This document shows, one piece after another, positions 1 through 32,799 of a DNA stretch of 64,000 bases (position 1 is its first letter; each line of letters begins with the position of its first letter). The stretch covers positions 28,148,001 to 28,212,000 of the forward strand of contig CM060732.1 of assembly GCA_030704615.1 (NCBI GenBank), given 5' to 3'. The translations under genes were made by a program, and so were the position numbers. Below the pieces are notes generated by a model. That model did no database searches. It was not told the DNA's origin and saw nothing but the letters and a program-made list of their open reading frames with translations. Origin of the DNA: Takakia lepidozioides (taxonomy: Eukaryota > Plantae > Bryophyta).

Positions 1-400
1 TAACAGAGACATAAGCCCTGGATAGGCAGAAAAGTGAGTGTGAGAGAACCGCCAGAAACTGCGTGCGTTGACGCAATCAATTTTTGGAGGTTCTCTGTAT
101 GGCCTTCTCTCAGCTGTGTTGTGTTACCAGAGACAGAATCCCTGAATAGGCAGAAAAGTGAGTGTGAGATAACCCCCAGAAATTGCGTGCAGTTTCTGGA
201 GGTTCTCTCACACTCACATTCATGCCTATTCAGGGAGATTAGATTAAATGTCTGCTGCATACTTTTATGGAAGAGAGTAGATTGACTTTGGGTATGAAAT
301 AGGCAAAGAAATGAGTACCTTTCAGAGGGTGGAAAATTGCGTGCGTTGAAGCAATTTCTGGCAAGTTTTTTACATTTGTAACCTTTCGTTTTGAGTGCAG

Positions 401-2859
401 ACGAAGAAAAAGAAAGGTGCTACACAGGTCGAGGAAGAAGTGATTGAGCAGGAACTGGTGGTTGTTGAGGAGGAGGACGATGGCAGGCCATATGAAGACA
501 GAGCGAAAGATCTGCTTTCATTCTCAAAAGTGAATTCTGCCCAAGTCATCAAGGCCATGGGCGTCCTTGGGGGAAAAATAATGATACCCCTATGCCGTTT
601 GATCTCCATGCCCTTCGTTCAACCAGCTCTGACAAACGACATTCAAAAGTTGGAACAGGATTTTTGCCATGGGTACATAGAGGGTCAATCTGTTTTTTAC
701 GTCTCCTTGGCAGACTCCGCTGGCAGAGAGGTGTTGGTGGACGAGTCCATTGTTGGAGGCTGGGATCCTATCTGGCGACAGATAAACGATGAGTTCGAAT
801 CTATCATTTGCAAGAGGCTCGTCACCCAGCCTTTCTCTGGCAAGATGTTTCATGTGTGGGATGGCAACCACCGATTGTTTGCCTGGAGGAACATGATCGA
901 GAGATATCATAGCACCGAGGAGGAGTGGCACTACTCTGTGGCCTCAATGGTGTTGGATCCCAAGGGAAACATCACTGCACTATTGACGGCAATGCATGAC
1001 GTTAACAAGTAAGTGTCTTCTTCACCTGTTATTGTCCGCATTTTTTCCTTCACTGTCTGTTTGCTTTTAGCACTCACTGACGACACCCACTGTATGTGAC
1101 AGGGGAACTGAAGCCGCCCATGTGACAACGAACCTTCTTCACACACTATTCAGGATCTAGAATATCGGCCAGATGCCCCTCAATTCATTCAAGAGCATCC
1201 TGAGTGCGGAGTCATTCAAGAAATGTTTGACATCGAAAACGTCAGATACCTAGTACAAGCTGACAAGGGAAGCATTCATGGAGTACATGTACACTGTAAG
1301 TATTCCATCGCTCTGGCCTTCCATTGTCTGTTGTGATATTGTCAGTAACAAGTGATCTCATTCCGGATTACGTTTTGCAGCAAGAAATAGCTGAAGCTGG
1401 AGAGAGAGGAAAAGTGGAGTACTATTTGAAAAACCCGGAGGGTCTGAGGACGTCCAAGGGAGTGGCGGAAGCCATGAAGTTTACGATGAATGAGATACGG
1501 AAGAAGCTCATGAGCGCTTTCGTGAAACAGCTGAGAATAGCTGACCCTGATTTTGGTCCCGAGTTTCTTAACTAGGTGAAGATCCACTGGAACAATAACA
1601 CCAAACCGGAGATGACACGGGAAAAGCTTCACCGGTTGTCAACTGCAGTTGTGGAAGTTGACCAGAAAGTGAAAATGGTTGGAGATTGGAATTCCGACCC
1701 AACCGTCAAGGATACATACTGCTTCCCTAGGGGTGAAAGAGATGAGAACACCAGGCACATCAAACCCTTTAGCGACCAAGTTCTTGATACATGGTTGCAC
1801 AAAGCCACCTACTGGAGCCAGGTACTTTTCAGGACTTTCTGTGCTTGAAATTTTTGAGAATATCTTCCCATGAATGGACTCTAACCCATGCATATGTATA
1901 CCTGCAGATTGAAGCTCGTGCAAACAAGGTGTTGGAGAAACAGCTTTATGACTACAAAATTACCATGACCGTGCCCGAGGACACTCTGGAGGATTACTTG
2001 AGGCAGTGGAAGGCCACAGCTTGGAGCAACTGCTTCTTCAAAGAGTTTTCCCGAGATGGAGGAATCTCCTGAACAAATGACTTTGACCAGCAGTACGGGG
2101 CGGAGGGAGCCATGAAGAGGGTCCTATACAAGTTCGTTAATTTTGTCTTATGTTTGAAAACTATCTTTGGCAATCTGTAGACAGGCAGTTTGTGGCCATG
2201 AAAAACTGCGTGCGCCAACGCACGCAATTTTAGAGGGCCACAAACTCAGATGTGCTCTCTCCTCCATCATGGATTTCAATGTGTCGTTGGCAGTTCTGAG
2301 TGGAATATCTGTCTGCCGAGAAGGGGATATCTTTCTGCATATGGAACCCTTTGTTTTCTCCTGTTCTTGCATATGGTACTTGTGAGTGTATTTTGGTTGC
2401 CTCATGCTCAAGTATTTGTGCACCCCAAACTGTGTGCGTCGACGCACGCATTTTGGGAGGGCCGCAATATATGTTTTTTTGCCTTCAATGTCTAAAAGTG
2501 TACCTCTTTTGTTTTGTAGGTATATCAAGAACGTGCTCATTCCGGGAAAAAACTTCAGTAAGTACCCTGCCTTCATCGACTTGTGGTCTGACCCCTCTAA
2601 CAGTTAGACCATGTATACGGCAACCATCCTAAGAGACTACGGGAGATATCACCTGAAATAGTGCTGCTGGTATCTAGACATTCCAAAATCAGATTGCCCC
2701 TGGTATGAGTTGCAGACACGGAACCAGAACGACAATGCGGAGTCTTTGGCCCCTCTTACTGACAAGGAATTGCATGAGATGAATCTGCGAAACCTCACTG
2801 AGAAGGAACCCGCAGCCAACAAAAATCCTGCGAGAGGGATGCGAGAGGGAAGGGAAAGG
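401..2859 (+). pseudogene. Multi-exon disrupted gene with a ParB/sulfiredoxin-like DGNHR motif; 3' end abuts the retrotransposon at 2860
   Basis: ORF 395-1012 contains FHVWDGNHRLFAW. Plausible GT-AG exons at about 401-1008, 1103-1296, 1381-1821, 1908-2131 and 2520-2859, with in-frame stops (e.g. TAG 1573-1575). Confidence 0.5.
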
Positions 2860-3014
2860 TGTCGTGCGCATACATATCGCTACACAACTACATCACACAC
2901 TAGTATACCACTAGTCCACCACTAGTCTAGCCACTAGTCCAACCACTAGGCTACAACTAGTCAGTCACTAGGCTACCACTATGCTGCCCACTATGGCAGT
3001 CACTAGTCCACACA
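2860..3014 (-). repeat. Terminal repeat 'B' (3' terminus of copy A)
   Basis: TGTCG...CCACACA. Homologous to 19661-19841 and 20172-20371. Built from CACTAG units. Confidence 0.9.
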
Positions 3015-3274: not shown

Positions 3275-3934
3275 CTATCCCAAGCAGTGTGGACACAACC
3301 AATCTCCGTCAGGAACCTTCTCAAGAGGTGGTGTCAAGCATCCCATATGCCAACCCCTTGAGCATCGATCACACACCAGCATGGTGGCTGCCCCTTTGGC
3401 AGACCCACAGAGCATGCATCTCAAACCTGCAGATACCACTGCCAAGTTTGGGTCAACTCTGCCATCGACATTGGGAAGGTGACATGGCGAACAATTATGC
3501 ACATGGTCCTTCCAAGTCATGCCATCCCGACCCTCTAAGATCAGGACCCCTGAGGGCAATACCTCTCGAACCCTCAGAATAACATGCCCTGCAGTATCAT
3601 CCAGAGTCGTAGGAGCAGTCTGCTGCAAATAAACATAGTCACCAGGGCTAAACCTCCGAACCCCAGGACGATATCCTCCACCACGTATAGTGGCATACCT
3701 CAACGTATCACGGTGTTGTGCAATGGCAAGGTTCTCAAAAGCCATAGGCATGACTTTCTTGAACAACTCTGCACGCTGATCACATGCACGTACCCACACG
3801 TCCGGATCGTCAAGGTTAAGGACTTGAGCAGTGTCCCTACGAATGGCTGCAGGCAAATCCGGCTCTCGGCCAAAGAGAAGGAAATATGGTGAGAAGGAGG
3901 CAAGTGATGCTTGTTTGCTGAACCTGTAGCCCAT
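3275..3934 (-). CDS. Integrase C-terminus plus PHD finger (copy A)
   Basis: SPYFLLFGREP, then C4HC3: CMLC...CDRC..GWHMGC.TPPL..VPDGDWLCPHC. Separated from the integrase core by a ~50-bp deletion relative to copy B. Confidence 0.9.
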   Translation of the reverse strand: MGYRFSKQASLASFSPYFLLFGREPDLPAAIRRDTAQVLNLDDPDVWVRACDQRAELFKKVMPMAFENLAIAQHRDTLRYATIRGGGYRPGVRRFSPGDYVYLQQTAPTTLDDTAGHVILRVREVLPSGVLILEGRDGMTWKDHVHNCSPCHLPNVDGRVDPNLAVVSAGLRCMLCGSAKGAATMLVCDRCSRGWHMGCLTPPLEKVPDGDWLCPHCLG

Positions 3935-3936
3935 GG

Positions 3937-5271
3937 CTAACCAAGGAAACCCCTCTTCACTGTCTGAACAACTCTCTCTGCTAAGCCATCGGCCTCAGGA
4001 TGATCCCGAGAAGTGGTGCGGGGGTCTATCAAGGCTTTATCACACAAAGCCTGAAACTCCCCCAAGAACTCTCTCCCTTGGTCCGTGAGTACCTCAGCTG
4101 GAGCACCAAATCGGCTAAGCACACGATCCAAGAATGCATACGCAGCCCCCTCACTAGCCTTGTCAGGCAATGGAACCAACTCAATCCACTTGGAGAAGTG
4201 TTCCACCATCACCAACATATATCTGTGGTGGCGCATAGTCAGTGGCAACGGTCCTGCGAAGTCAAGACTCCACCTGTAGCCCAATCCCATGATTGATAAA
4301 GGATGCAACTGTGGTGTAGGGGCGTTGAATGAAGCACGCACCCTGTCACACACCATGCACCTAGCCACGAACTGTTGCTCCTCTGTATGCATACCACGCC
4401 ACCAATACTGCCCCTGCAGTAAACTGTGAGTGCGTAGCACTCCAAAATGCCCCAACTCCTCATGGGCATGCCGCACTAACCGTGCACGCTGTGTAGGGTG
4501 AGGCACAATCCTCACCCGACCATCCTCCCACACTCGAAGTAGGTGTATCCCCTCCCATTTGAACCTCTTGGCTCGTTGCAGGATCCGATCCCTCTCCCTG
4601 GCAGTCACAGTGGCTGCCGTGTCTCCCGTGCGGAGGTAGTCCAACACAGCCGAATCCTCATGTATATCTCTGGCACCACCTGGCTCATCACTAGCCTCAG
4701 GGTCCTCAGACACTCCGTCTACAGTCATCCCTGTTGTAGGTCCAACCTGACCTCCCGATGCCAAGATACACAAAAATGCAGATGCGTGCCATCCCGGCAC
4801 CATCTCCTCATCCGTCTCACCATGCCACCAAGCTCCTGTGTCATCCTGCTGGCTCATGCATGGATTGCAACTCAATCCATCCGCATCCCGATTGACCAAA
4901 CCTGGTCGATGCACAATCTGAAAGTCATACTCCTGGAGTATGAGTGCCCACCGTGCAAGCTTCCCCGTAAGCTTGTCTGACTCCATCAACCACTTGAGTG
5001 GCTGGTGATCCGTGACAAGGGTGAAAAGATTGTCGTATAGATAGCACCTGAAGTGTGCCACGGCCCACACTGCAGCTAAGCACTCTCCCTCATATGAGCT
5101 GTACTTAGCCTCTGTAGCGTTGTTCAAGCGGCTAGCATAAGCCACTACGAACTCTCTTCCCTCATCATCCACCTGTGTGAGCACCGCTCCAAGCCCCAGC
5201 ATGCTCCAATCCGTATGCAGCTGAAAGGGACGCCCCCTGATAGGTCGTCTCAGGATAGGCGCCGAGGTCAA
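3937..5271 (-). CDS. RNase H plus integrase core (copy A)
   Basis: FQLHTDWS..GLGAVL, TDHQPL; HEELGH...CMVC zinc motif; WSLDFAGP, LTDQGREF, GLAER. Confidence 0.95.
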   Translation of the reverse strand: MTSAPILRRPIRGRPFQLHTDWSMLGLGAVLTQVDDEGREFVVAYASRLNNATEAKYSSYEGECLAAVWAVAHFRCYLYDNLFTLVTDHQPLKWLMESDKLTGKLARWALILQEYDFQIVHRPGLVNRDADGLSCNPCMSQQDDTGAWWHGETDEEMVPGWHASAFLCILASGGQVGPTTGMTVDGVSEDPEASDEPGGARDIHEDSAVLDYLRTGDTAATVTARERDRILQRAKRFKWEGIHLLRVWEDGRVRIVPHPTQRARLVRHAHEELGHFGVLRTHSLLQGQYWWRGMHTEEQQFVARCMVCDRVRASFNAPTPQLHPLSIMGLGYRWSLDFAGPLPLTMRHHRYMLVMVEHFSKWIELVPLPDKASEGAAYAFLDRVLSRFGAPAEVLTDQGREFLGEFQALCDKALIDPRTTSRDHPEADGLAERVVQTVKRGFLG

Positions 5272-5319
5272 CCTCGCCTTGAGCTCTTGAAAAGCTCGTT
5301 CCTGATCATCTTCCCACTG

Positions 5320-6357
5320 TCACTCCTGGTCCACCTTGGTCAGCTTGGTTAGAGCCTTTGCAAGGGTACTAAATCCCTTGACAAACCGTCTATAATAATT
5401 TGCCAACCCCATGAAAGCTCGAACTCGGCTCACATCCGTGGGGCGTGGAATTTGTGCAATGGCCTCTACCTTAGTCTGCTGTACCCCCAATCCTCCAGGA
5501 AATATCATGTGACCCAGATACTCAATCTGGTTGTGGAAAAACTTGCACTTCCCCGAATGCAACTTCAATCCGTGCGCTCTCAAGCGCTCCAATACCACCT
5601 GAAGGTGTCTCTCATGCTCCTCCATCGTAACACTAAAGATGATGATGTCATCTATGTAGCACCGAGCAAAGCCCACCCCTGCTAGAATCCTATCCATGAC
5701 TCTCTGAAACTCTGCAGGAGCATTCTTAAGCCCAAATGGTAAGAACCGCCACTGATATAGGCAATCCTTGCCGTGCTCATTGATCCCCCATAATGCCGTC
5801 TTCTGCTTGTCCGTCTCCTTGATTGGCAACTGGTGATATCCGGATCGTAAATCCAAAGTGCTAAAGGCCTTAGCATGCCCGATGGCATCAAAGATCTCCT
5901 CTGGTGTTGGCATGGCATACTTATCGGACTTGGTCTGACGATTTACAGGCCGGTAATCACCGCACATACGTCTCTCCGTCCAATTGCCATAGACATCCTT
6001 CTTTGTTGGCATCACTGTGGCTGAAGCATACTCTCCACCAGAGAGCTCCACCAAACCTGCCTCCTAGAGATCTTGAGTCCTCATCTGAATCAAAGACCTC
6101 TCCATGTCACTGTATCTATAGGGTCTCCGAAAGATTGGCGTGTCAGTGGCCAACTTGATACGGATCTCTTGATCCTTCAGTGCTCCCAAGTCCTTCAAAC
6201 TGAAGGCAAAGCAATTCTTGTAAGCCCTCAGGAACCGCCGTATACGTTGTCTCTCTCCTCCGGTGACAATGGGTCCAATGTCAGGCTCCCAATTGTCCTC
6301 CGTAACTGCAACCTTAAGTCCAGTGGGCTTAGAGGTAGAGGACGCGTCCAGTGGTTG
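5320..6357 (-). pseudogene. Reverse transcriptase (copy A), in frame with the DNMT ORF
   Basis: [28 protein letters not shown]. The frame continues from 6357. Additional stops at 6064-6066 and 5320-5322. Confidence 0.95.
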
Positions 6358-7620
6358 CTATGTTGCAACCTCTTGAGCAGTACTCCCTGCCTGCTCAGTC
6401 AATGACAAGGCCTCATCCTGCCCCATCATCTCATCCTTGAGGACCTCCTCAACCGGAGAAGAATCCCCAACCTCATCCATCACAGCCGCCTTGGCTGCCA
6501 ACTCCCTCTGAACCTCGAGCACCTCCCACGTGTGCCATGGATGCATGCACCCCGTGGTCCTTACATGCTCGCCCCCACCAACTGCCTGTACCGTCTCGGT
6601 AGGCAGAGAGACCATTGAGGGAAGTGTACTCCGCACTCTGCGTTCCTTAGCCAAAGCCAAGCTGATAATCCAGGTCAAGCAATTGAGATCCATTGCTTGC
6701 CCCAACACTTGACGACGTGATGCCTCAGAAAGAGACGACACCGCCGTGGTACCAGTGGTAAAACCCATTGCCCGCTCACGCTCGTCAGCATTAGGCTCCA
6801 CTAACTTCTGCAACTGAGCATCCCACAGGAGGCCAGGTCCACTATCCCGGAAAGCATGCGATCCTGGGAAGCTGAGCAGTGTAGGTAATGCTGCTCGTGG
6901 TTGACCCACCTTGTTGACCACTGCCAAAGGCAAACGGTCATCGTGTCTCACACGCTGAGACTGCCTCCCTGTGTCCAGAATGTTATCCACTGTGAGATGT
7001 GCTGGCCGCTGCACCCCATCAAATGCACGCTTGAGCAGTGCGGGTGGCATCAAGTTAGTCCACCATAGCCGTGGACGATGAGCCCGTGACCCCACTGTAG
7101 CTGCATCTAGCAACACTGCTGACCCAAGCCACGACCGGACTTGATGCACACTGGCCATCACCCTGGCCCGAGAATCGCCCATCAGTGGCACATTCTCCAA
7201 GATGTATGCTGGAGATACAGCTTGATGAAACTGCAAGTGGCGCAAAACCCGCACCATCTCCCAAAACAGACCCGACCTCGAGTCTCGCAATCCATTGCCA
7301 TGCCCGGCTGATGAATGCCCTTGGCAGGGCCAACCTGCCACTACCAGATCAATGGAGCCATCCCGCTCCAAATCCTGCGCCCCCAGCAACGAAATGTCTG
7401 CTGGCAAGGCCTGCTGATATCCACGAATTGCAGACACCGACAACAACTCAGGGTACCGCTGCACCAACTGAGCAACATGGCGAAGTGAAACACGTCGTGC
7501 AGTCTCATCCCTCTCCACATACAGGTAATGTCGAACTCGTATACCTGCTTGTAACACAGCAGCCAATCCGGTGCTGATCCCGCCAAACAAGTCCAGAAGA
7601 CAAATGCCTTCATCGATACT
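6358..7620 (-). CDS. DNMT3-like C5 cytosine methyltransferase domain in the polyprotein (copy A)
   Basis: Motif I LLDLFGGISTG, IV GWPCQG, VI ILENV, VIII AHRPRLWWTNL, IX ERERAMGF, X RRQVLGQAM, in canonical (non-permuted) order. Confidence 0.93.
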   Translation of the reverse strand, partial: SIDEGICLLDLFGGISTGLAAVLQAGIRVRHYLYVERDETARRVSLRHVAQLVQRYPELLSVSAIRGYQQALPADISLLGAQDLERDGSIDLVVAGWPCQGHSSAGHGNGLRDSRSGLFWEMVRVLRHLQFHQAVSPAYILENVPLMGDSRARVMASVHQVRSWLGSAVLLDAATVGSRAHRPRLWWTNLMPPALLKRAFDGVQRPAHLTVDNILDTGRQSQRVRHDDRLPLAVVNKVGQPRAALPTLLSFPGSHAFRDSGPGLLWDAQLQKLVEPNADERERAMGFTTGTTAVSSLSEASRRQVLGQAMDLNCLTWIISLALAKERRVRSTLPSMVSLPTETVQAVGGGEHVRTTGCMHPWHTWEVLEVQRELAAKAAVMDEVGDSSPVEEVLKDEMMGQDEALSLTEQAGSTAQEVAT

Positions 7621-9067
7621 GCCACACAATAGGTGTGGTGTCCAATGGAGACAATTGAGGTGGTCCTGGTGCAATCCCCACACTCTCCTCCTCTCCTGAC
7701 GGTACAAAAGCCTCCACCCAGGCTTGTTGCACCCGTCGATCAGCATCCCGTTGCAAATCCTTGCTCGTGCCCCACAATGGAGTCTGAGCAACCATGGTAG
7801 GCAACTCCGCCATACCATACATGTCATCCTGCTCTCTCGGAGGTGGTACATCCTCTGAATGAGCATTGCCCTCAAGCAACTCTCTAGGCCAACTCACTGC
7901 CGCTGTGAATGCTGCTAGTGTCGGCATCTTGCCTCGCTGGGCAACCGCAACTCCTCCTATGAACGTCACAGGGAGCTGCACACGCCGGCCCTCCCCTGAC
8001 TGCCATGCAGGCCTATAGGAAGCTGACTCCTCCCAAAAATCCAGGGTGAAGCCCATGGGGTACAACACTGCCCCACCAACCAGGACATCGTATGAGACTG
8101 CGTCTGTCACAATGGCCTTGGCTCGCATCACTGAGCCATCTGTAGGGTGATCTGGCCGTAGTCTGATAGCCAATTCACGCCGTGTCATGCCCCGAGCCTG
8201 CTCCGATCCTCCCAAAGACGTCTGTATCTGGAATGGACAAGGCTCCATATCCACCTCCGTGAGGCCCAAGCCTGCAATAGCAGCTCTGCCTAGCATCAAT
8301 GGCTGAGCTCCCGAGTCCAACAAGACCCGCAGTGGCCGGTACCTCTTGCCTGCCGGTCCACTCAAACAGAAAATGCCATCCTGGTTGTCTAACATGACAA
8401 CTCCAGGTGTCACCATGGCGCGCTCAATGACTGGCCTAGCTGGCAGCTCCATCAACCTGGCAGCTGCAGCTTGCCATGGCACCGCCATGGCAGTCTTGAC
8501 CCTCAAATCCGAGGATCCCTCTGGCACTACACCTCCCACTATCTCCGCAGAAGATGAAGTAACCTCCCCACTCTCACAGAGTGTAGCTGCCAACCTGAAC
8601 ACCTCAGCTGGTCTAACCCCCGGCGTCGCAATCGTGGTAGCCGAAAACAATGGAGCCTGGCACACAGATGTGGCCGCTCCTAGCAGCACACTAGCTGCCG
8701 CAGCCTTGGCAACACTAGGTAGTGGTTCTACCCGTGTAGCTCTCCCCAATGGCATAGTAACCTCCGCCTCGGTAACCGTCGGGCGAGAACTAGGTGCCAT
8801 GGATGGCGTCGACACTGTCTCCGCCAATGTGAATGACTGAGAAAGCCTAGCCTAACGGCTTGCCTCTCCACGCTGTGGATCCAACTCCACCTCTGCACCT
8901 CGTGGCTCAGGAACTCGTGCTGCTCCTCGAGTCACGGCTGCAGCCGACTCCACCTGCACTAGTGGTAGTGCTGCTCCACACATGAATCCCATGCCTCCCA
9001 TATCTCCTCCCTCAGGAGCAGGAGGTGGACCATCCGGCCTTAGAGCCGGTATCACCTGAGCTGTAGC
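7610..9067 (-). CDS. Gag-protease linker and aspartic protease (copy A)
   Basis: LRVLLDSGAQ...YDVLVG. There is a 2-nt frameshift at about 7615 relative to copy B. Confidence 0.85.
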
Positions 9068-9762
9068 TGTCGCGGCCCTTTGCCTTGAGGGCAGGGGGTC
9101 GGGACACATGAGGGGCTGCCCCTGTGGTGGGGGCAGCGGCAGCGATAGGTATGGGGGGCTGAAGCACCCTTGAGTGCCCAAGGCACTCAGGGAAGCGGAG
9201 GCGCTCACTAGGTGGAGCCCCGCACACCGGGTTGCGGTGGGGGTGGCTCCACAAGGGGTGGTGGTAGCTTAGTGGGACTTAGTGGGGGTGGCATAGGACT
9301 CACCATGGGGCGGAGACCTCGTGGTGGGAGTCGTGAGGAGTCTTGGGACTCATCACGGTCCATAGGGGCCGTGGTGAGCGGGCCAAGACTCACCGCGACT
9401 CACCACCGGGAATCGAGGGTCTTCGTGGTGGTTCGCCATAAAATGGCATGGCTGGTTGTGAAACCCCCGCGGACAGCTACAGAAGTATATATAGGAGTAG
9501 TAACCCGAGAACGGTGCAAGCCCGTTGGTGACCAAAAACTAGTGAGTAAGCGAGCGAGCTGGAAAGCGACCAAAGAGTGGGGAGCTGTTCCGGACTGCCA
9601 TCTACCAAAGGGAATTCCACTAGGCCCAAATAGGTGGAGGGTCTTTCGGGGGAGCGAAGGGGGACCGTTATGTCCCGGTGAGCAGCCGAAGCTCCAAGTT
9701 GGCCCGGCGGCCGGTTGGGAGTCAGGCGCGCGCAGAAAAGCGAGTAACTATGACTTGAGGGG
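9068..9762 (+). repeat. Chromovirus 5' LTR (U5 end and PBS deleted)
   Basis: Matches 14542 to about 15232, then joins directly to mid-gag. Confidence 0.9.
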
Positions 9763-9763
9763 C

Positions 9764-12700
9764 ATGGCAGAACCAGAAATGGTCTTCAACTTTGTGGCGG
9801 GACTGGCCCCATGGGCCAGGCGGAAGTTGGAGGAGAAGCCACCCAAGACTTTGAACGAGGCTATTGAGAGGGCAGAATGTTTCTCAGATGTCCCTAGGGG
9901 TGAAAGACAAGGCCGTACGGAGCTGAACCACAAGAAGATTCGGCGGGAAGGTGACTCCTTCCGACCGGAAAAGAAGTGGGATAGGCCACGCGGCGAAAAT
10001 GGCACGTGGAAATCGAAGGGAGGGCCTTCACACGTCAAGGCGGCACCCGGTGCTTCGAAAGGAAAAGCGGGTGGAGCGGCTTATGGCGGACAGAAGGCGA
10101 CCTTTGATGGAGTGTGTTTCAATTGCGGGGAGCCCGGGCACATGGCCAAGAAGTGCACGAAGCCCCGGCAATTGAACATAACTCGGGCGACCACGGAGCT
10201 GTCGGAAGATACCATCAGTCGCTTGGTGGAAGCGGTGGTCGCCAGGACTTGCAAGGTAGGCAAATTTTCTTGTGAGTTGTATCAGGAAACTGGCGCCTTA
10301 CGAAAAGGGAGTCAGTTATTGTTCGTGGATGGGATAATATCCGGAACTAATGTGTTGTTGTTGGTGGACATAGGAGCGTCGCACTCCTTCATGACACGGC
10401 AACGGCACAAAAGCTGGGACTCCCGACAAGTGACGTGGGGGCCTCTATTGAGGTGCGTTCTGCCAAAGGAGAACCACAGTTGGCGACAAGGTTGGCGATA
10501 AATGTTCCTCTTCAACTGGGGAGTTGGGAGGACGTGAGAACTTCACCATCTGCGAGATCGATGGAGTGGATCTCATTTGGGGATGACCTTTTTGAGCAAA
10601 TCCGGAGCGGTCATAGATGGCCGCAAGAGATAGTCACGCTGCCATGTGGGAATGGTGGCAAGGTTTTACGAGTGTCAGAAACGCCCAAATCCGTGGGAGG
10701 GCGAATAAACCTTCTGTCAGCAAAGGAGTGGGCCGTGGAGGAGGCACACGAGCCCAATTTTTGCTTTACATTAGAGAAGTGAAAGGAGAAGGCGATGGGG
10801 AGCCGAGCCCAGATTGGATCAAGGGGATTTTGGAGAAATACCAGGATGTGATGCCGGAGGATTTACCAAGCGGCTTGCCACCGCGAAGAGGAGTTGACCA
10901 CAAGATTGAGGTGATACCGAGATCGGAACCGCCTGCCAAGGCGCCCTACCGGTTGAGCCACAAAGAGTTGGTCGAGCTGAAGACTCAGCTCAAGGATCTA
11001 ATGTCAAAGGGGTACATCTGGCCGAGTAAGTCACCTTACGGAGCCCCGGTGCTATTTGCAGACAAGAAGGATGGGACGCTGCGGATGTGTGTCGATTACA
11101 GGGCTCTAAATAAGGTGACTATCAAAAACCGGTACCCTTTGCCAAGGATCGACGACCTCTTCGATCGGTTGGCAGGAGCGAAGTATTTCAGCCGGATCGA
11201 CTTGCGCTCCGGCTATCACCAAATTCGGGTGGCGGAAGGAGATGAGGAGAAGACCGCGTGCAGGACAAGGTATGGTTCATATGAGTTCTTGGTGATGCCT
11301 TTTGGGCTCACCAATGCACCAGCGACATTTAGCACGCTGATGAACAGCCTTTTCCAGGAGTGGTTGGATGACTTTGTGATCGTGTACATCGACGACATCT
11401 TGGTGTACTCGAAAACAAAGGAGGAGCACCTGGAGCACCTCAAAAGGTGTTCCAAAATTGCGGGAAGGGAAGCTGTATGCCAAAGCTTCAAAGTGCGAAT
11501 TCGGGGTCACAAAAGTGGAGTTCCTGGGGCATGTGATTACACAGGATGGGATCAAATGGATGACAGAAAGGTGAGGGCGATCTTGGACTGGGAGCCTCCG
11601 ACTTCGGTCCCGGAGTGCGATCCTTCCTAGGACTCGCCTCCTATTACCGGAAGTATGTGAGAAATTTCGCCAAGATCGCGGGGCCGCTGTCGGACCTTCT
11701 GTGTAAATCCAAAGTCTGGGTATGGAACACATTTTGTGGCCAAGCTTTTGCTGAATTGAAGCAGTGGATGACGGAAGCTCCAGTCTTGAAAATCCCGGAG
11801 TTCGATCGTCCGTTTGAGATTCATACAGATGCATCGGACTTCGCGATTGGGGGTGTACTTATGCAAGATGGACGTCCAGTGGCTAACGAAAGTAAGAAAC
11901 TGAATGAAGTGGAGCGATGGTGGCCGACGCACGAAAAAGAGATGAAGGCGGTGGTGCATTGCCTTGAGCTCTGGCGCCACTATGTTGGTTCCAACCCAGT
12001 GAAGGTGTTCACGGACAATGTCACGGTGAAGTATTTTGCCACGCAGCCCAAGTTGTCCCCAAAACAACTTAGGTGGCAAGATACTTTGGCAGTGTTCGAC
12101 GTGGATATCCAGTACAAACCGGGATGGGACAATGTGGTGGCCGATGCTTTAAGTAGAAAGCAGCAGCTCTTGTTGGTGTACAAGGGCGAGACGGCGCTCC
12201 AAAGGAAGATCCGGAAGGCTTGCCGGAAGGATGAGCTGGCAAAGTCCGTGATGCAGGACTTGAGAATGGGGTTAAATCGCAGTTCCACTTGCAAAATGGA
12301 CTGCTCCGGTATAAGCAAAAACGTCTCTACGTGCCGAAGGGAGGGATCAGAGATAGCCTCTTGAGAGAATGCCATGATAACCCACTTGCGGGCCACGGCG
12401 GAGCCAAGCGCACTGCGGCACTCTTGAAGAAAGAGTATTTCTGGCCCAAACTGAGGGAGGAGGCAGAGGAGTATGTCAAGACATGCACCACATGCCAACA
12501 AAACCGGAGCGAGTACAAAAAGCAAGCGGGGCTGTTACAACCCTTGCCGATTCCAGAGGGGACTTGGGAAAGCGTCTCGATGGATTTCATGACTGCTATG
12601 CCGCTGTCAAAAGAATTCGATGCAATCATGGTGGTGGTAGATAGGTTCAGTAAAATGGGCCATTTCATCCCACCAAGGAGACGGCAACGGCGCAGGAGAC

Positions 12701-13638
12701 AGGGCGACTTTACTTCGCCCACGTCTTAAAGCATCATGGAGTCCCGAAGGATATTGTCTCGGACCGCGATCCAAAGTTTACGAGTAAATTCTGGAGAGCA
12801 CTTTGGAAGAAGATGGGGACGAGGCTGAAGATGAGCACCGCCTTCCGACCTACGACCGACGGCCAAACAGAAAGAGTGAATTCCGTAGTGAAGCAGATCT
12901 TGCGGAATTACGTGTCGGCAGACCAACAGACTGGGTGGAACACTTAGACGCGGCAGAGTTCTGTTATAATAACACACTCCGCAACGGGAGTTTCCCCTTT
13001 CGTATTGGTCTATGGAAAAGCACCTCTGGTGCCGACAAGTTGGGCCGCCCAGGACGTTGAGGAACCGGCAGTAGCGGCGGTACTGGAAGAACGCGAGCGT
13101 TTGTTGAAGCTCGCAAGTACAACATTGCCAAAGCTAGGAAACGGTATGAAAGGCAGGCGAATGGAAGCGGAGGGAAGTGAAGTTTGAGGCAGGCACAGAG
13201 GTCTGGTTGAACATCAAGAATTTCTGACTACCTCCGGAAGTGAGTCCGAAGTTCGTACCTCCGTATGGGGGTCCCTTTTGCATTCGGAAGGTTATGAATG
13301 AGGATGTGTATGAATTGGAGCTGCCGGCAAACAGCAAGGTGCACCCAGTATTCCATGTCTCCCTTTTGAAGCCTTACTTCAAAAATGAAGCACGTCCGAA
13401 TCGGCATCAAGTGTTGCGTCCGCCACCTATGATGTTAGATCATGAAAATGAACCTGAGTACGAGGTGGAGGCAATACTTAAGTCGAGGAGGTTCAAGAAC
13501 CGAGAAACGGAGTATCTCGTCAAATGGAAGGGCTATCATCATGTGGAGGCATCTTGGGTGCGTGCCTCAGAAATGGGAAACGCATCCGAGGCAGTTGCAG
13601 CGTTCGAAGGGCGACCTCAAAAGCGGAAGAAACGTTGA
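9764..13638 (+). pseudogene. Chromovirus gag-pol, frameshifted
   Basis: CFNCGEPGHMAKKC; LVDIGASH; YIDD; HTDASDFAIG; HDNPLAGH..CTTC; SMDF; PYGGPF; chromodomain EYEVEAIL...YLVKWKGY. Confidence 0.92.
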
Positions 13639-14541
13639 TGGGGACATCAACCTTGGAGCGTGGGGGAGGAAATGCATGCTTAGCCCGGTTAGCTAGCTCA
13701 GGAATCCGATTGCAAAAACTTGTATTGTACAAAAATTTGTTATAAAGGAAATGGGTTCCAAATATTCTGCGTCCTATTGTGTTTGGAATGGTGATGCATG
13801 GTGTGGTTGGCTAGTGTGTAGAATGCATGCTAGCTTACAAAAGTGGGAGAGGTAAATTGGTTAATCGTGTGTTTGCGCAGTGCCAAATCGGGTGACTCCC
13901 ATCCAAGGGGCAAGGAAACTTGCGCCTTCTTTGGGAGTTCACGTGCTAGTGCGCACCTGGCGCATGCGCGTACTATAACTGCGCTACCGAGGGGGTTGCC
14001 TTGTAGTGCGGGCTAACGCGGAAGCTACGTGCTTCCGTTCACGTACTATAATCGTGTAGCCTCGGGACGAAGTCGTAGTGCGGCTTTGGCGTGTTCCCGT
14101 ACCTCAGGCCAGCATTCCAAGGCGGACCCAATTGTAGTGATTGGGGCGCACGGTTGGTTCAAGGTTATCTTCCTAGTCAAAGAGGGTTCTAGGTGAACCC
14201 TTGCTCAAGGTGATGCCAAAAGCGGCATCATGAGCGATCGCAAGCAATGTTGTTGCAGTAAGGCGATTCGATCCTCGGGGAGGATCGTTCCTTGGCCTTG
14301 AAGTAGGCCAAGAAGAGTGCACTGGGAGGAGCTGGAGAGGCTCCACCCTTGGCCGGGACTTGGAGGAAGTCGGCCGAACTAGCTAAACGAGAGTAGAGTC
14401 AAGTGTGGGGTTTGGTTCTTTGCCATGGGACGCCATGGTACAAAAACAAACTCCTTGATGTGGGACGCCACAACTTGGATGTTTGTTTCTACAAAATGGA
14501 CAAGTCGATGAGGACATCGACTCCCTGTTGGTAGGGGTGTG

Positions 14542-15259
14542 TGTCGCGGCCCTTTGCCTTGAGGGCAGGAGGTCGGGACACTTGAGGGCTGCCCCTGTGG
14601 TGGGGTAGCGGCAGCAATAGGTATGGGGGCTGAAGCACCCTTGAGTGCCCAAGGCACTCAGGGAAGCGGAGGCGCTCACTAGGTGGAGCCCCGCACACCG
14701 GGTTTCGGTGGGGGTGGCTCCACAAGGGGTGGTGGTAGCTTAGTGGGACTTAGTGGGGGTGGCATAGGACTCACCATGGGGGCGGAGACCTCGTGGTGGG
14801 AGTCGTGAGGAGTCTTGGGACTCATCACGGTCCATAGGGGCCGTGGTGAGCGGGCCAAGACTCACCGCGACTCACCACCGGGAATCGAGGGTCTTCGTGG
14901 TGGTTCGCCATAAAATGGCATGGCTGGTTGTGAAACCCCCGCGGACAGCTACAGAAGTATATATAGGGAGTAGTAACCCTGAGAACGGTGCAAGCCCGTT
15001 GGTGACCAAAAACTAGTGAGTAAGCGAGCGAGCCAAAAGCGACCAAAGAGTGGGGAACGTTTCGGACTGCCATCTACCAAAGGGAATTCCACTAGGCCCA
15101 AATAGGTGGAGGTCTTTCGGGGGGCGAAGGGGGACCGTTATGTCCCGGTGAGCAGCCGAAGCTCCAAGTTGGCCCAGCGGCCGGTTGGGAGTCAGGCGCG
15201 CGCAGAAAAGTGAGTAACTATGACTTGAGGGGGAGCTTACCGAAGTGAGGTGCGCGACA
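14542..15259 (+). repeat. Chromovirus 3' LTR (718 bp)
   Basis: TG...CA with a 7-bp inverted repeat; direct repeat of the segment starting at 9068. Confidence 0.93.
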
Positions 15260-16722
15260 GTAGCCATGGCAGCGAGCCTCTGCTCTAGCTGCTGAAGCCG
15301 GTTGGCCATGCCTTGGTCAACACCCTGACCCCCACGTCCTTGGCCACGTTGAGGTTGCCCTTGGCCTCGTGGCTGGCCACCTCGTCCTCTCTGCTGCTCC
15401 ACCTCGCCCCCGGCCACCATTGTTCCTTGGAACTGGCCTGGGCGCAACTCAGGATGCAAACCATAACACTGGGCCCTCCATGCCCGTGCTTGCCACAATC
15501 CCACACTGCAACTGTGCAGGCTGTGCATGTGCCGACCCTTTGCCTCCCTCTGGGCAATCCTTCTTGACATGGGGTCCTCCACATGTCCAGCACACCACAT
15601 TTACCCATTGTTGGCCAGCAAATGAAGGGAGAGACCCCTGCATCTGAGGTCCTCTCTGCCCTTCCCTGAGCTTCACCTGAGCCCCCTTGTTGCCTTGAGC
15701 ACGTTGAGGTAGTGGTTGGCTAGGAGCACCACCCCGTGGTGTCTCCTTAGCAAATCCCACCATGACCACTCGTTCCTCCACCATGTTGAGCTCTATCCGT
15801 TCTGCCAGCAAAAACACATTTGCTAAGGTGGGTTGGGCCGCTTGTAGGAGAGTTGCATCCCGCACCCTTCTCCTCAGCTCCTTGTCCAATATCCCATACC
15901 AGAATTGGACTGCCTGAGCTTCCGTAACCCCTTGGGTTACATTAATCAAGCGCCTCATGCGAGTGAAAGCCTCCCTCAAGCTCTCGGTCGGCTTCCGTTG
16001 GAACTCTTGCAAGCTCCGCAACTTCTCTGTCCTCACCCCTTGGTAGTTCCCTCTCAACTCTTCGAAGAACTCCACAACAGGGTTGAAGGCAGGCACGGGT
16101 GCTAGTGCTGGTGCGGTAGTGGCTTGGGTGGACGTCGTAGCTACTGTACCACCAGTCCCACTAGTTCCCACTGCTACTTGCTGAAGCTGCCGGTGCAGCG
16201 GCAGGTGTAGCCACTGCCCTCGTGGCTCTAGTGCCCCTAGTGATGGAGACATAGTCGGGTGACCAGTACATCCTCCACTCCTCGATCTCAACCTCATGCC
16301 CCCGCCTGAACTCATGGTAATCATCCATAGGCGGCCCCTCAAGGTGCTGAAACAGCCCTTTCCATGCCATGAACGGCGTAAATAGTTTGTGGATTGCGCA
16401 TTTGCTGCAAATCACACCAACTATCAAACTCTTGGATAAAATCATCCAACTCGATGGTGCCCACCACCCCAGAGTACCTTCGTGGCCCCTTGGTAGCTCC
16501 ATACATCTCCTCCATTGTGTCCCACAACAATGGCAAAGAAACAACTTGCACCGCCGGTATGAGTCCTCCTGATTCACAATCCGAATCAGAACCTTCCGTG
16601 GAAGACACAAGAGGTGAAGGTGGCCTAAACCGCACACCTCGTCTCGTGTACCCACTAGTATCGCTAGTGCTCGAACCGGCACTGTCCCCAGCAACTAGTG
16701 GCACCTCCGTGTTGACACTCAA
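15260..16722 (-). pseudogene. Gag of copy A (frameshifted)
   Basis: LDDFIQEFDSW, QKPTESLREAFTR, CWTCGGPH, CGKHGH. Matches 24975-26417. Confidence 0.85.
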
Positions 16723-17052
16723 CCGGTCATGAACATGTCCCTAACCCCCTCTCCACAAGGTAACCGGGTAGAGAACCTGTTGCGGCTTATGGTTTGGAAT
16801 ACTAAGTTCCTAACATAGCCTACACTTGTACCTGCATCCACCGCAAGCACTCCTATGGTTGGCTGGTCATCACTTCCAACCTCACCACAGGAGAAACAAT
16901 GATGGTCTGGCTGGTCATCACCCCAGCCTCACCATCGACAGCATGCTCTAGGACTGGCCGGTGATCAAATCCGGACCATCACCTATAAAAACAAGCGCCC
17001 ACACAAAACTAGCATGGCGCACAGTCAAGCATGCAGGTATGGAGGGGATCCA

Positions 17053-17552: not shown

Positions 17553-19337
17553 CTCATAAGATGTCTTGGTTGGTGGGGCAGGTTGGTACCCCATGGGCTT
17601 CACCCTGGATTTTTGGGAGGAGTCAGCTTCCTATAGGCCTGGATGGCAGTTAAGGAAGGGCCGACATGTGCAGCTCCCTGTGTGACGTTTATAGGAGGAG
17701 TTTGCGGTTTGCCCATGTGGGCAAGATGCCCACACTAGCAGCATTCACAACTGCAATGACTTGGCCTGGAGAGTTGCTTGAGGGAAACGCTCATTCAGAG
17801 GATGACATACCTCTAGGAGAATATGATGACATGTATGATATGGCAGAGTTGTCTGCCATGGTTGCTCAGACTCCATTGTGGGGCACGAGCAAGGATTTGC
17901 AGCGGGTTGCTGATCGACGGATGCAATAAGCTTGGGTGGAGGCTGTGCTGGTACAGGAGAGAGAGTGGAGTGGAGGAGTGCGGGATTGCACCAGGACCAC
18001 CTCAGTTGTCTCCATTGGACACCACACCTATTGTGTGGCAGTATCCGGATGAAGGCATTTGTCTTCTGGACTTGTTTTGGCGGGATCAGCACCGGATTGG
18101 CTGCTGTGTTACAGGCAGGTGTACAAGTTCGGCGTTACCTGTATGTGGAGAGGGATGAGACTGCACGACACGTTTCACTTCGCCATGTTGCTCAGTTGGT
18201 GCAGCGGTACCCTGAGTTGTTGCCGGTGGCTGCAGTTCGTGGATATCAGCAGGCCTTGCCAGCAGACATTTCGTTGCTGGGGGCGCAGGATTTAGAGCGG
18301 GTTGGCTCCATTGATCTGGTAGTGGCAGGTGGGCCCTGCCAGGGCATTCATCAGCCGGGCATGGCAATGGATTGCGAGACTCGAGGTCGGGTCTGTTTTG
18401 GGAGATGGTGCAGGTTTTGCGCCACTTGCAGCTTCATCAAGCTGTATCTCTAGCATACATCTTGGAGAATGTGCCACTGATGGGCGATTCTCGGGCCAGG
18501 GTGATGGCCAGTGTGCAAGTCCGGTTGTGGCTTAGGTGAGCAGTGTTGCTAGATGCAGCTACAGTAGGGTCACGGGCTCATCATCCACGGCTATGGTGGA
18601 CTAACTTGATACCACCCGCACTGCTCAAGCGTGCATTTGATGGGGTGCAACGGCCAGCACATCTCACAGTGGATAGCATTCTGGACATAAGGAGGCAGTC
18701 TCAGCGTGTGAGACACGATGACCGTTTGCCTTTGGCAGTGGTCAACAAGGTGGGTCAACCTGGAGCAGCATTACCTACACTGCTCAGCTTCCCAGGATCG
18801 CATGCTTTCCGTGATAGTGGACCTGGCCTCCTGTGGGATGCTCAGTTGCAGCAGGTAGTGGAGCCTAATGCTGACAAGCGTGAGCGGACAATGGGTTTTT
18901 ATCACTGGTACCACAGCGGTGTCGTCTCTTTCTGAGGCATCACGTCGTCAGGTGTTGGGGCAAGCAATGGATCTCTATTGCTTGACCTGCATTATCAGCT
19001 TGGCTATGGCTGAGCAACGTAGAGTGCGGAGTACACTTCCCTCGATGGACTCTCTGCCTACCGAGACAGTACATGCAGTGAGTGGGGGCGAGCATGTGAG
19101 GACCACGGGGTGCAGGCATCCATAGCACACGTGGGAGGTGCTCGAGGTTCAGAGGGAGTTGGCAGCCAAGGTGGCGGTGATGGATGAGGTTGGGGATTTT
19201 TCTCGGGTGGAGAAAGTCCTTGAGGATGAGATGATGGGGCAGGCTGAGGCCTTGTCACTGACTGAGCAGGTAGGGAGTACTGCTCAAGAGGTTGCAACAT
19301 AGCAACCACTGGACGCGTCCTCTACCTCTAAGCCCAC
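17553..19337 (+). pseudogene. Inverted fragment of the DNMT-gypsy element (copy C): protease end plus DNMT, frameshifted
   Basis: FGGISTG, GGPCQG, HHPRLWWTNL, and EVAT-TAG-CAACCA at 19300-19308. Confidence 0.88.
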
Positions 19338-19660
19338 TTGTTACAGCCCGCCACAACCTGTCAAAGCCTGTCACAACCCGTCACAACCCCATAGGCCGCA
19401 TGGCACAGCCTGTCACAGCCTGCCACAGCCTATCACAGCCCCTCACAGCCCCACAGGCCATAGGGCACAGCCTGTCACAGCCCGTCACAGCCCCACAGGC
19501 CACTCCTGACAGTTTAGCCATTTCTCCAAGGGGTTTAGCCATGCCAAGCTAGGGTTTGTGTCTCTTGGACTCTAGGCTTCTTTGCACCGAGCTATGGCGG
19601 CTTTGAAGAAATCAGCAAGATATTCTTGCTCTTTCGGCTCCCACACACCACCAATAGTAG
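19338..19660 (-). mobile_element. 5' leader segment of host copy B' (continues at 29526-31032)
   Basis: Matches about 27700-27971 and ends in the GTAG TSD. Confidence 0.75.
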
Positions 19661-19841
19661 TGTTGTGCGCATTCATATCGCTACACAACTACATCGCTGT
19701 CCAAAACCACACAACACATGTGCACACCACACACTAATATACCACTAGTCCACCACTAGTCCAGCCACTAGTCCAACCACTAGGCTACAACTAGTCAGTC
19801 ACTAGGCTGCCACTATGCTGCCCATTATGGCAGTCACCACA
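19661..19841 (-). repeat. Terminal repeat B2
   Basis: Homologous to 20172-20371, with small deletions. Confidence 0.9.
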
Positions 19842-19842
19842 A

Positions 19843-20169
19843 TGATAAAGAAGAAGAATACAAGCACAAGCTCATGCGAGCTCACAAAGCTAAAGCATAA
19901 ACTCATGCATGTATAACCTTATCACTCAAATACAAGTCAAGCCAAGTGCACCCCACGCCATGGGGAATCCACACTACGGTGCCATAGCTAGGCGCGGTGA
20001 GGCTCAACTCGAGAAAGATGAGCCTCCCGCGCTTGCCGTGAAGATAACCATTCCAGGGCCTAAATCTGCCTTGACCCCTGGATTGATACTTGGGCCAATC
20101 CCAAATGTCAATATATAAAAGCTAGCTATTTCTTAGCTAGTTTCATACTAGTGGTAAAATAACTTGACA
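19843..20169 (-). repeat. Terminal repeat A2 (327 bp)
   Basis: TGATAAAG...AACTTGACA; homologous to 29199-29525 and 30707-31032. Confidence 0.9.
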
Positions 20170-20171
20170 GC

Positions 20172-20371
20172 TGTCGTGCGCATACATATCGCTACACAAC
20201 TACATCGCTGTCCAAAACCACACAACACATGTGCACGCCACACACTAGTATACCACTAGTCCACCACTAGTTCAGCCACTAGTTCAACCACTAGTCCAAC
20301 CACTAGGCTACAACTAGTCAGTCACTAGGTTGCCACTATGCTGCCCACTATGGCAATCACTAGTCCACACA
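20172..20371 (-). repeat. Terminal repeat B1 (200 bp), adjacent to the PPT
   Basis: TG...CA; PPT at 20372-20384. Confidence 0.9.
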
Positions 20372-20631
20372 ATCGCCCCCCTAGCTGGTGCTTAGGTCCC
20401 TCTAAGTTCAGGTAGCCACAAGATGTGATAGTTATCATAGCCTCACTAAGTCCTCCACCACTGTTCCTACTACACTCAAACTCGATAGATCAAGAGGCGG
20501 GGTGCATGAGTTGCCCCATCGTTAGTCGCCGTCTTGCAACCTGTGAACTTGAGCTGGGGATCTCATGTATTGACTCCTATGAGCTTGGCCTCCCATATCT
20601 TGTTAGCTGCCTCCAATCATGTCCACTGCCA

Positions 20632-22110
20632 CTATCCCAAGCAGTGTGGACACAACCAATCTCCGTCAGGAACCTTATCAAGAGGTGGTGTCAAGCATCC
20701 CATATGCCATCCCCTTGAGCATCGATCACACACCAGCACGGTGGCTGCCCCTTTGGCAGACCCACAAAGCATGCACCTCAAACCTGCACGTACCACTGGC
20801 AAGTTTGGATCAACTCTGCCATCAACATTGGGAAGGTGTCATGGCGCAGAATTACGCACATGTCCTTCCAAGTCATGCTATCCCGACCCTCCAAGATCAG
20901 GACTCCTGAGGGCAATACCTCTTGAACCCTCAGAATAACACGCCCTACAGTGACATCCAGGGTCGTAGGAGTAGTCTGCTGCAAATAAACATAGTCACCA
21001 GGGCTAAACCTCCGAACCCCAGGACGATATCCTCCACCACGTATAGTGGCATACCTCAACGATATGGTGCTATGCAATGGCAAGGTTCTCAAAAGCCATG
21101 GGCATGACTTTCTTGAACAACTCTGCATGCTGATCACATGCACGTACCTACACGTCCGGATCATCAACGTTGAGGACTTGAGCAGTGTCCCTACGAATGG
21201 CTACAGGAAAATCCGGCTCTCGGCCAAAGAGAAGGAAATATGGTGAGAAATATGCAAGTGATGCTTGTTTGCTGAACCTGCAGCCCATGGCTAACCGAGG
21301 CACCTGAAGATCCCAATCTCCTAGGTGTCCTTTCTGCAAGCCATACTTGCGCAGACCCTCTTCACCGTCTGAACACTCTCTCTGCCAAGCCATCGGCCTC
21401 AGGATGATCCCGAGAAGTGGTGCGGTGGTATATCAAGGCTTTATCACACAAAGCCTGAAACTCCCCCAAGAACTCTCTCCCTTGGTCCGTGAGTACCTCA
21501 GCTAGAGCACCGAATCGGCTAAGCACACAATCCAAGAATGCATACGCAGCCCCCTCACTAGCCTTGTCGCGCAATGGAACCAACTCAATCCACTTAGAGA
21601 AGTGCTCCACCATCGCCAACACATATCTGTGGTGGCGCATAGTCAGTGGCAATGGTCTTGCGAAGTCAAGACTCCACTTGTAGCCCAATCCCATGATTGG
21701 TAAATGATGCAACTGGGGTGTAGGGGCGTTGAATGAAGCACGCACCATGTCACACACCATGCACCTAGCCACAAACTGTTGCACCTCTGTACGCATACCA
21801 CGCCACCAATACTGCCCCTGCAGTAAATTGTGAGTGCGTCGCACTCCAAAATGCCCCAACCCCTCATGGGCATGCCGCACTAACCGTGCATGCTGTATGG
21901 GGTGAGGCACAATCCTCACCCGACCATCCTCCCATACTTGGAGCAGGTGTATCCCCTCCCACTTGAACCTTTTGGCTCGTTGCAGGATCCGATCCCTCTC
22001 CTTGGCAGTCACAGTGGCTGTCATGTCTCCAGTACGGAGGTAGTCCAACACAGCCGAATCCTCATGTATATCTCTGGTACCACCTGGCTTATCACTAGCC
22101 TCAGGGTCCT
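20632..22110 (-). pseudogene. Integrase plus PHD (copy B), frameshifted
   Basis: HEGLGH..CMVC, WSLDF, LTDQGREF. PHD sequence matches 3275-3420. Confidence 0.9.
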
Positions 22111-22197
22111 TGGTCCAATGTCAGGCTCCCAATTGTCCACCGTAACTACAACCTTAAGTCCAGTGGGCTTAGAGGTAGAGGATGCGTCCAGTGGTTG

Positions 22198-24962: not shown

Positions 24963-24974
24963 GGCAGCGAGCCT

Positions 24975-29198: not shown

Positions 29199-29525
29199 TG
29201 ATAAAGATGAAGAATACAAGCACAAGCTCATGCGAGCTCACAAAGCTGAAGCATAAACTCATGCATATATAACCTCATCACTCAAATACGAGTCAAGCCA
29301 AGTACACCCCACGCCATGGGGAATCCACACTACGGCGCCATAGCTAGGCGCGGTGAGGCTCAACTCGAGAAAGATGAGCCTCTCGCGCTTGCCGTGAAGA
29401 TAACCACTCCAGGGCCTAAATCTGCCTTGACCCCTGGATTGACACTTAGGCCAATCCCAAATATCAATATGTAAAAGCTAGCTATTTCCTAGCTAGTTTC
29501 ACACTAGTGGTACAATAACTTGACA
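29199..29525 (-). repeat. Terminal repeat A1 (5' end of copy B)
   Basis: Homologous to A2; flanked by the GTAG TSD. Confidence 0.9.
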
Positions 29526-32635: not shown

Positions 32636-32799
32636 GCCTGCCTACCACCCCTAAGGCCTGTGTCTGTCACCCCTAAGGCCTCTGTTGGTCTGAGTCTACC
32701 ATCCGTAAGTCTCCACAAAACTAAGGGTACCCTACAGAACCCGTAAAACTGTCTAAATCCCATATAGAACTCTAACAGGAAAGTATAAAGGTTTCTCCC

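Follow-up and report, generated by a model that had tools for sequence, protein, structure and literature searches.

A DNMT3-like cytosine methyltransferase in land-plant Gypsy retrotransposons and a conserved, predicted read-through stop codon behind it

Organization of the locus

The window, by which we mean the whole 64-kb stretch of DNA analyzed, holds three copies of a Gypsy retrotransposon family that encodes a cytosine methyltransferase (DNMT) beside protease (PR), reverse transcriptase (RT), RNase H (RH), and integrase (IN). The three DNMT copies are 92-93% alike in DNA identity. The family occupies the following positions:

6358-7620, minus strand: DNMT of copy 1
22198-23454, minus strand: DNMT of copy 2
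about 18060-19302, plus strand: DNMT of copy 3
15260-17052, minus strand: gag and leader of copy 1, separated from the protease by a nested element and stopping at an N gap
9068-15232, plus strand: nested, unrelated Gypsy element without DNMT inside copy 1, with direct repeats at 9068-9762 and 14542-15232 (97%)
7610-8851, minus strand: aspartic protease region of copy 1, with DSG at 8323 and, ahead of the DNMT, a frameshift at about 7614
5323-6351, minus strand: linker and RT of copy 1, in frame with the DNMT, interrupted by stops at 6066 and 5322
3940-5319, minus strand: RNase H and integrase (H2C2, rve) of copy 1
3278-3994, minus strand: C-terminal part of the copy 1 integrase in a shifted frame, with a PHD finger at its end
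2861-3010, minus strand: 3' end of copy 1, a single B repeat ending in CA, without an A-B pair after it
19661-29525, minus strand: copy 2, a whole element (TG...CA) of layout A-coding-B-A-B, with RT-RNase H deleted
29529-29526 and 19660-19657: 4-bp target duplication of copy 2, CTAC
29199-29525, minus strand: repeat A1 of copy 2
20172-20372, minus strand: repeat B1 of copy 2 (start approximate)
19843-20169, minus strand: repeat A2 of copy 2
19661-19842, minus strand: repeat B2 of copy 2
24975-26258, minus strand: gag of copy 2 with a CCHC knuckle (25211), in the same frame as the protease
22198-24974, minus strand: protease and DNMT of copy 2 (DNMT domain about 22480-23454), with a stop at 22200-22198 and then CAA-CCA
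17553-19338, plus strand: copy 3, an inverted fragment with the end of the protease region and a frameshifted DNMT, stop at 19300-19302
29526-31032, minus strand: A repeat and leader of another family copy, into which copy 2 inserted; the leader resumes at 19660-19343

The domain order in copy 1 is protease, DNMT, RT, RNase H, integrase, and C-terminal PHD finger. The preliminary description had placed the DNMT between protease and RT in three copies, an arrangement that is whole only in copy 1. A deletion at about 22112 has removed RT and RNase H from copy 2, and copy 3, a fragment, breaks off about 36 nt past its stop. Its claim that the methyltransferase is integral to a Gypsy family is borne out by the three window copies together with related loci and proteins elsewhere. 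The protease of copy 1 matches Pfam only at an E-value of 0.018; it carries the DSG motif and shows 39% identity to the related protein P0029, in which the protease scores above the Pfam threshold. At the joint of gag and protease, copy 2 has a stop and copy 1 a sense codon. All three copies are broken by frameshift, in-frame stops, deletion, or fragmentation, and copies 1 and 2 have diverged neutrally (dN/dS 1.35) and are consequently considered dead. Neither a tRNA gene within the 64-kb window nor a primer-binding site was found. The element leader also contains a minisatellite of 10-bp units (27120-27815 and 19340-19505), which recurs in inverted orientation at 32370-32650.

The A-coding-B-A-B layout was present in all three full-length elements examined (window copy 2 and the loci L032 and L053), and all three are flanked by 4-bp target duplications, which fit insertion by an integrase. 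Assignment to the DIRS elements, with their tyrosine recombinase, was rejected, since the element has an rve integrase and 4-bp target duplications. The joint between B1 and A2 always reads CA, two variable bases, TG (window 20170-20171; L024, L028, L032, L053, and L055). This joint resembles a joined pair of element ends and bears on how a split-repeat layout is copied.

Two genes of the window speak to the host:

37875-40523, plus strand: intact PLS-type PPR gene with E, E+, and DYW domains, the sequence from there to copy 2 being free of N gaps
46483-47715, plus strand: host gene related to GIL1/IRKI C-terminal-domain proteins

Among the 120 matches listed for the PPR gene, the named ones are land plants or a synthetic construct (54-73%), with the land plants at 54-68%. 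The second gene has 17 relatives at E-values up to 1e-40, and in the 10 clusters consulted the only named organisms are Ceratodon and Sphagnum (44-54%). Given the land-plant relatives of the PPR-DYW gene and the moss relatives of the GIL1/IRKI-related gene, the host is an embryophyte, as had been proposed, and most likely a moss or other bryophyte. The PPR-DYW gene is made up of five 303-bp units that share 80-84% identity and stem from a recent expansion within the gene. Other repeat debris comprises a DUF4218 transposase-like piece, an integrase core, and duplicated LINE-like remnants (52700-53700, 51200-51583, 59340-61760), the LINE label being our reading of the sequence. A 53-bp tandem repeat with internal palindromes lies at 32800-33750. 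Finally, a 205-aa frame at 395-1012 (plus strand) gave no Pfam match and carries a DGNHR motif that is presumably ParB-like.

Identity and fold of the methyltransferase domain

The domain was delimited in copy 1, where its motifs could be placed as follows (all on the minus strand):

6640-7620: DNMT3-like C5 cytosine methyltransferase domain, motifs I, II, IV, VI, VIII, IX, and X in standard order
7596-7579: motif I
7521-7513: motif II
7335-7321: motif IV (GWPCQ)
7200-7189: motif VI (ENV)
7083-7069: motif VIII
6777-6760: motif IX
6717-6688: motif X
6361-6639: acidic, weakly conserved tail behind the domain

The methyltransferase of copy 1 matches Pfam PF00145 at an E-value of 4e-13. Its nearest solved protein by sequence is DNMT3A (E 5e-11 with the single sequence and 5e-23 with a profile), followed in the profile ranking of solved proteins by DNMT3B/C, DRM (7e-15 to 3e-11), and HhaI (5e-8); the target-recognition loop falls outside the aligned part of the profile alignment to DNMT3A. 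An AlphaFold model of the domain, made from a 42-row alignment, had a pLDDT of 96, and its best Foldseek match was DNMT3A (6w89_A, E 2e-20, TM 0.73/0.83). The catalytic cysteine and glutamate and the arginines of motif VIII are near-invariant in the 42-sequence alignment. Furthermore, the PCQ, HRxR, and motif I patterns are found in 41 of 41 checked proteins of the stop-bearing clade described below, and ENV in 40 of 41. The order of motifs from 7596 to 6688 and the structural match to DNMT3A uphold the initial reading of a non-permuted, DNMT3-like domain. By modeled fold, the element's domain is a non-permuted DNMT3-like methyltransferase, with catalytic activity predicted. An identity with plant DRM enzymes, also discounted at the outset, was rejected: their circularly permuted motif order is not that of copy 1, and DRM scores below DNMT3A.

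Relatives, phylogeny, and selection

Database searches returned 65 longer related proteins, with named members in Marchantia (many, 59-77%), Calypogeia (75%), Sphagnum (49-60%), and Klebsormidium (KFL_009030040, 45%). A HMMER scan gave 257 clusters at E-values up to 1e-30, a metagenome scan 73 related loci, and a search of viral contigs one distant locus (L001, 30%). Relatives showed two architectures, PR-DNMT-RT-RH-IN and RT-RH-DNMT-IN-PHD, the second of which forms its own clade. In this large clade (52 proteins) a single open frame carries the DNMT downstream of RNase H and upstream of integrase, frequently together with a PHD finger; members are P0038, P0039, P0046, P0047, P0049, P0050, P0064, L058:3084-4085, and L062:1874-2854. 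We found no description of this placement in the literature searched. Protein P0067 combines a related C5 methyltransferase with a Dam domain and recalls dual-methylase retroelements.

Trees of 77 DNMT rows and 68 RT rows, drawn from about 260 domain-bearing proteins and from loci with intact frames, were built with FastTree, without host DNMT3. Elements that bear the stop codon discussed below grouped in a single clade in the DNMT tree (support 92) and also in the RT tree (99). Both trees place the Klebsormidium clade apart from the stop clade; their deep nodes are unsettled, and the RT tree has a single long-branched outgroup. Of the phylogenetic comparison suggested earlier, the part with Klebsormidium transposon DNMTs yields a separate clade.

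Between subfamilies, dN/dS of the DNMT was 0.07-0.26, near saturation, and 0.136 for the unsaturated pair L035/L036; RT behind the stop gave 0.046 (L035/L037). The DNMT is under purifying selection between subfamilies. The check across copies proposed in the preliminary description therefore comes out both ways, as purifying selection between subfamilies and as neutral divergence between window copies 1 and 2. In run X1, possibly the source sample, the summed depth of the element was 0.57-1.45 million, compared with about 60 in the majority of the single contigs listed, a ratio that is not a copy number; the copies likely number in the thousands.

A conserved stop codon behind the methyltransferase

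Between DNMT and RT lies the following site:

6352-6360, minus strand: in-frame TAG (6360-6358) and CAA-CCA hexamer, predicted read-through site

The string TAG-CAA-CCA is identical in all three window copies, and in copy 1 the frame runs on into RT. Because the same TAG codon is present in the three copies, the end of the DNMT frame at 6358 is not a random break. Neither the stop behind the DNMT nor the layout of split direct repeats figured in the preliminary description.

The stop was tallied over 74 loci, 56 of which reach the start of RT. In 46 of these 56, a stop followed in frame by CAR-YY-N lies 17-24 codons before the RT start; as a measure of chance, 91 of 7452 TAG trinucleotides overall carry CAR-YY-N behind them, true sites included. 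The supporting loci comprise 33 with TAG and 13 with TAA, and 5 have a perfect CAR-YYA and 41 CAACC(C/T). These 41 belong to one Sphagnum-like subfamily, in which the hexamer is one base off the consensus and is mostly followed by ATG, and all 13 TAA loci are among them. Three of the 56 have a sense codon at the stop position (L034:6960, L040:5030, and L049; tyrosine twice and glutamate once), and seven have another context, owing to decayed frames or to the other architecture, among them L058 with the other architecture, L045 with TAG-TAG-CCA, and L052 and L059 with the motif in a shifted frame. Tyrosine is also the residue inserted at the stop of TMV, and single-base decay explains it equally.

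Counted by subfamily, a perfect CARYYA is present in 6 of 8 (that of the window and five others), as CAACCA in three, CAGTTA in one, and CAATCA in two. The two imperfect subfamilies are the Sphagnum-like (one mismatch) and that of L045 (decayed). Variation among the perfect hexamers is confined to the R and Y positions, and the encoded dipeptides are QP, QL, and QS. Synonymous divergence between subfamilies is high (pS 0.62-0.85), with most pairs saturated, and the tail upstream of the stop (100-148 codons) is poorly alignable. Across 1134 contigs of run X1 no change at 6352-6360 reaches 2%; in the flanks, position 6350 varies in 78% of the depth and 6363 in 65%. The nine bases are kept in the one contig of organism D, and the single contig of organism C (depth 3.5) differs at 6357.

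No in-frame ATG was found between the stop and the RT core in the window or in L035-L037, and an ATG after the hexamer occurs only in the Sphagnum-like subfamily (1 of 8). Proteins of the Marchantia and Calypogeia clusters, known as protein sequences only, are about 1250-1330 aa long and end about 100 residues past motif X, which corresponds to the position of the stop. When the region 3' of the stop was folded, no stem proved to be conserved (z -0.2 to -3.7). A hairpin in the 60 nt 5' of the stop was seen in L002, L035-L037, L042, L045, and L063 (z -1.1 to -3.9) and is absent from the window. By analogy with known sites, we are fairly confident that the conserved TAG is read through at a low rate to give RT, RNase H, and integrase.

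Proposed mechanism and alternative explanations

Taken as a whole, the reading toward which we lean is that a leaky stop leads to packaging of the DNMT at about the level of Gag and to methylation of the element's own cDNA before integration. Most ribosomes would halt after Gag-PR-DNMT and a minority would continue to RT-RH-IN-PHD. Since read-through would occur at a low rate, the particle would contain DNMT at Gag level and many DNMTs per RT. DNMT3-type enzymes are slow, and many enzyme copies would suit such an enzyme. In Arabidopsis, the TMV-type signal UAG-CAR-YYA is read through at 6-10% (PMC2754532), and by analogy there would be about 10-20 DNMTs per RT. The protease would presumably free the DNMT inside the particle, where it could act on cDNA ahead of integration; methylation of cDNA by the element's DNMT is, taken by itself, probable. 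New copies would then arrive pre-methylated like host repeats, with lower detection or damped expression of their own. The PHD finger may steer integration, by analogy with chromodomains, which set a precedent for such steering.

The copies have lost cytosines by C-to-T change at 25 of 136 CG, 32 of 222 CHG, and 29 of 613 CHH sites. Because the loss falls mainly on CG and CHG, the copies must have been methylated in the genome, a pattern that does not identify the writer. CpG depletion is equal in the element (0.46-0.51) and in the host PPR gene (0.49) and gives no sign of self-methylation; dinucleotide depletion does not separate self-methylation from host methylation. More speculatively, a high-copy, bryophyte-wide lineage might carry DNMT3 at Gag level in each particle, methylate its cDNA fully, and partly write host repeat methylation independently of host enzymes, an extension that we hold to be doubtful.

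Read-through could be real and the Gag-PR-DNMT product nevertheless act in the nucleus, in trans, on chromosomal copies or other repeats and not on particle cDNA. The amount of DNMT at Gag level far exceeds that of cDNA, slowed transposition is among the options listed by de Mendoza et al. (PMC5890265), and the C-to-T loss at CG and CHG indicates copies methylated in the genome. Host MET1/CMT methylation would, however, leave the same pattern, and fusion to Gag and protease would point to packaging. We therefore judge this explanation unlikely.

A second alternative is that the TAG is the 3' splice site of an intron or precedes a separate start; RT-RH-IN would then come from an RNA that is spliced or begins internally and that may leave out the DNMT. 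Splicing of the Ogre type is a precedent, TAG fits yAG, and in the Sphagnum-like group TAG is preceded by a run of T and followed two codons later by an ATG. An internal start has its own parallel in the junction promoter of Tca2 (PMC2194720). Against this, CAG replaces TAG in 0 of 46 loci and TAA does so in 13 copies; the T fraction in the 25 nt upstream is only 0.20-0.40, the CAR-YYA hexamer is left unexplained, and 7 of 8 subfamilies have no ATG at the matching place. In addition, one contig of run X12 covers 5900 to 6732, stop included, with no joint inside it, a weak point as X12 is only guessed to be RNA; the run has no cover over 6733-7387. Splicing or a separate start is accordingly given little weight.

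It may also be proposed that the DNMT fold serves as a structural particle module that binds nucleic acid or modifies RNA and is no DNA methylase. Gag-like stoichiometry suits a structural part, and the related Klebsormidium enzyme did not methylate yeast DNA, a result that its authors call inconclusive (PMC5890265). Against this, the catalytic cysteine, glutamate, and motif VIII arginines are near-invariant over 42 sequences, the nearest solved relatives are DNA methylases, and related DIRS DNMT3s methylate CG, SymbioDIRS-Dnmt3 doing so in yeast (PMC5890265). A role of this kind is improbable. Lastly, the shared stop might be a nonsense mutation that a non-autonomous lineage has spread, with the DNMT as a passenger. 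This would agree with the broken state of every window copy, but is largely refuted by the retention of the stop across subfamilies with saturated synonymous sites and by purifying selection on the DNMT and on RT behind the stop (0.046), and is most improbable.

Novelty and significance

DNMT-carrying retrotransposons were known from Klebsormidium, as the preliminary description had stated, in the form of KnitGypsy-Dnmt3 (PMC5890265). The kind of element is therefore already on record, and the predicted read-through switch is the new, testable part. The suggestion that the known range extends to land plants holds insofar as we found no earlier land-plant report, but members of the family are already present, labeled as hypothetical proteins, in the public gene sets of Marchantia, Calypogeia, and Sphagnum. 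Later papers speak of 'streptophytes' and do not name land plants in the parts available (PMC12344493; bioRxiv 10.64898/2026.05.21.726589). No report of a bryophyte DNMT-Gypsy or of its stop was found in the literature searched, which was mostly open papers; supplementary trees under 'streptophytes' may include bryophyte copies. The passages available from PMC10952607, PMC9033089, PMC6317226, and PMC3441728 make no mention of a bryophyte DNMT-Gypsy.

The question why retrotransposons carry cytosine methyltransferases dates from 2018 and is still open; the only Gypsy enzyme put to the test showed no activity in yeast. If the conserved stop behind the DNMT acts as an expression switch, the enzyme would be needed at structural and not at catalytic abundance, which narrows the mechanism. 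Marchantia polymorpha, with many near-full-length copies and with methylation mutants, makes both cDNA methylation and read-through directly testable. The stop behind the DNMT would also explain why 'hypothetical' Marchantia genes of about 1280 aa stop before RT. Studies of bryophyte methylomes may have to take these hidden DNMT3-type enzymes into consideration.

Comparison with known systems

Plant DRM2 and the host DNMT3 of bryophytes have the DNMT3 superfamily fold in common with the element's domain, DRM being permuted and lower-scoring. SymbioDIRS-Dnmt3 and the EpiLTRs are likewise retroelements with a cytosine methyltransferase of their own (PMC5890265; bioRxiv 10.64898/2026.05.21.726589). 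However, SymbioDIRS uses a tyrosine recombinase and EpiLTR has a DNMT4-related enzyme with DAM and a chromodomain, whereas the element described here has a DDE integrase, a PHD finger, and target duplications.

Retroelement frames split by an in-frame stop are also found in SIRE1, Tca2, and MuLV. There the stop lies at pol/env or gag/pol, and here it lies behind gag-PR-DNMT; MuLV needs a pseudoknot (PMC2194720), and here no conserved 3' stem is present. The closest match to the site itself is TMV, with an amber stop, CAR-YYA, and a polymerase in frame behind it, and with a methyltransferase-bearing product in about tenfold excess over the polymerase (PMC2754532, PMC2194720). Unlike in TMV, the element with the stop is a retrotransposon, the stop separates RT from a DNA methyltransferase, and read-through is predicted from sequence.

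The nearest known element is KnitGypsy-Dnmt3 of Klebsormidium nitens, a Gypsy element with a Dnmt3-like domain in its Pol ORF and DIRS-like A-coding-B-A-B repeats (PMC5890265). The two share the non-permuted Dnmt3-like domain, the Gypsy type, the repeat layout, purifying selection, and the order PR-DNMT-RT-RH-IN, with 45% identity over 260 aa to KFL_009030040. They differ in the land-plant host, in the separate clade, in copies of the window family that likely run, by a rough estimate, to thousands, and in the conserved TAG-CARYYA between DNMT and RT. In proteins of the Klebsormidium clade (the gene model P0058, and P0045 and P0051) the DNMT runs into RT without a stop. The window element is thus set apart from KnitGypsy-Dnmt3 because its DNMT/RT frame is split by a conserved stop.
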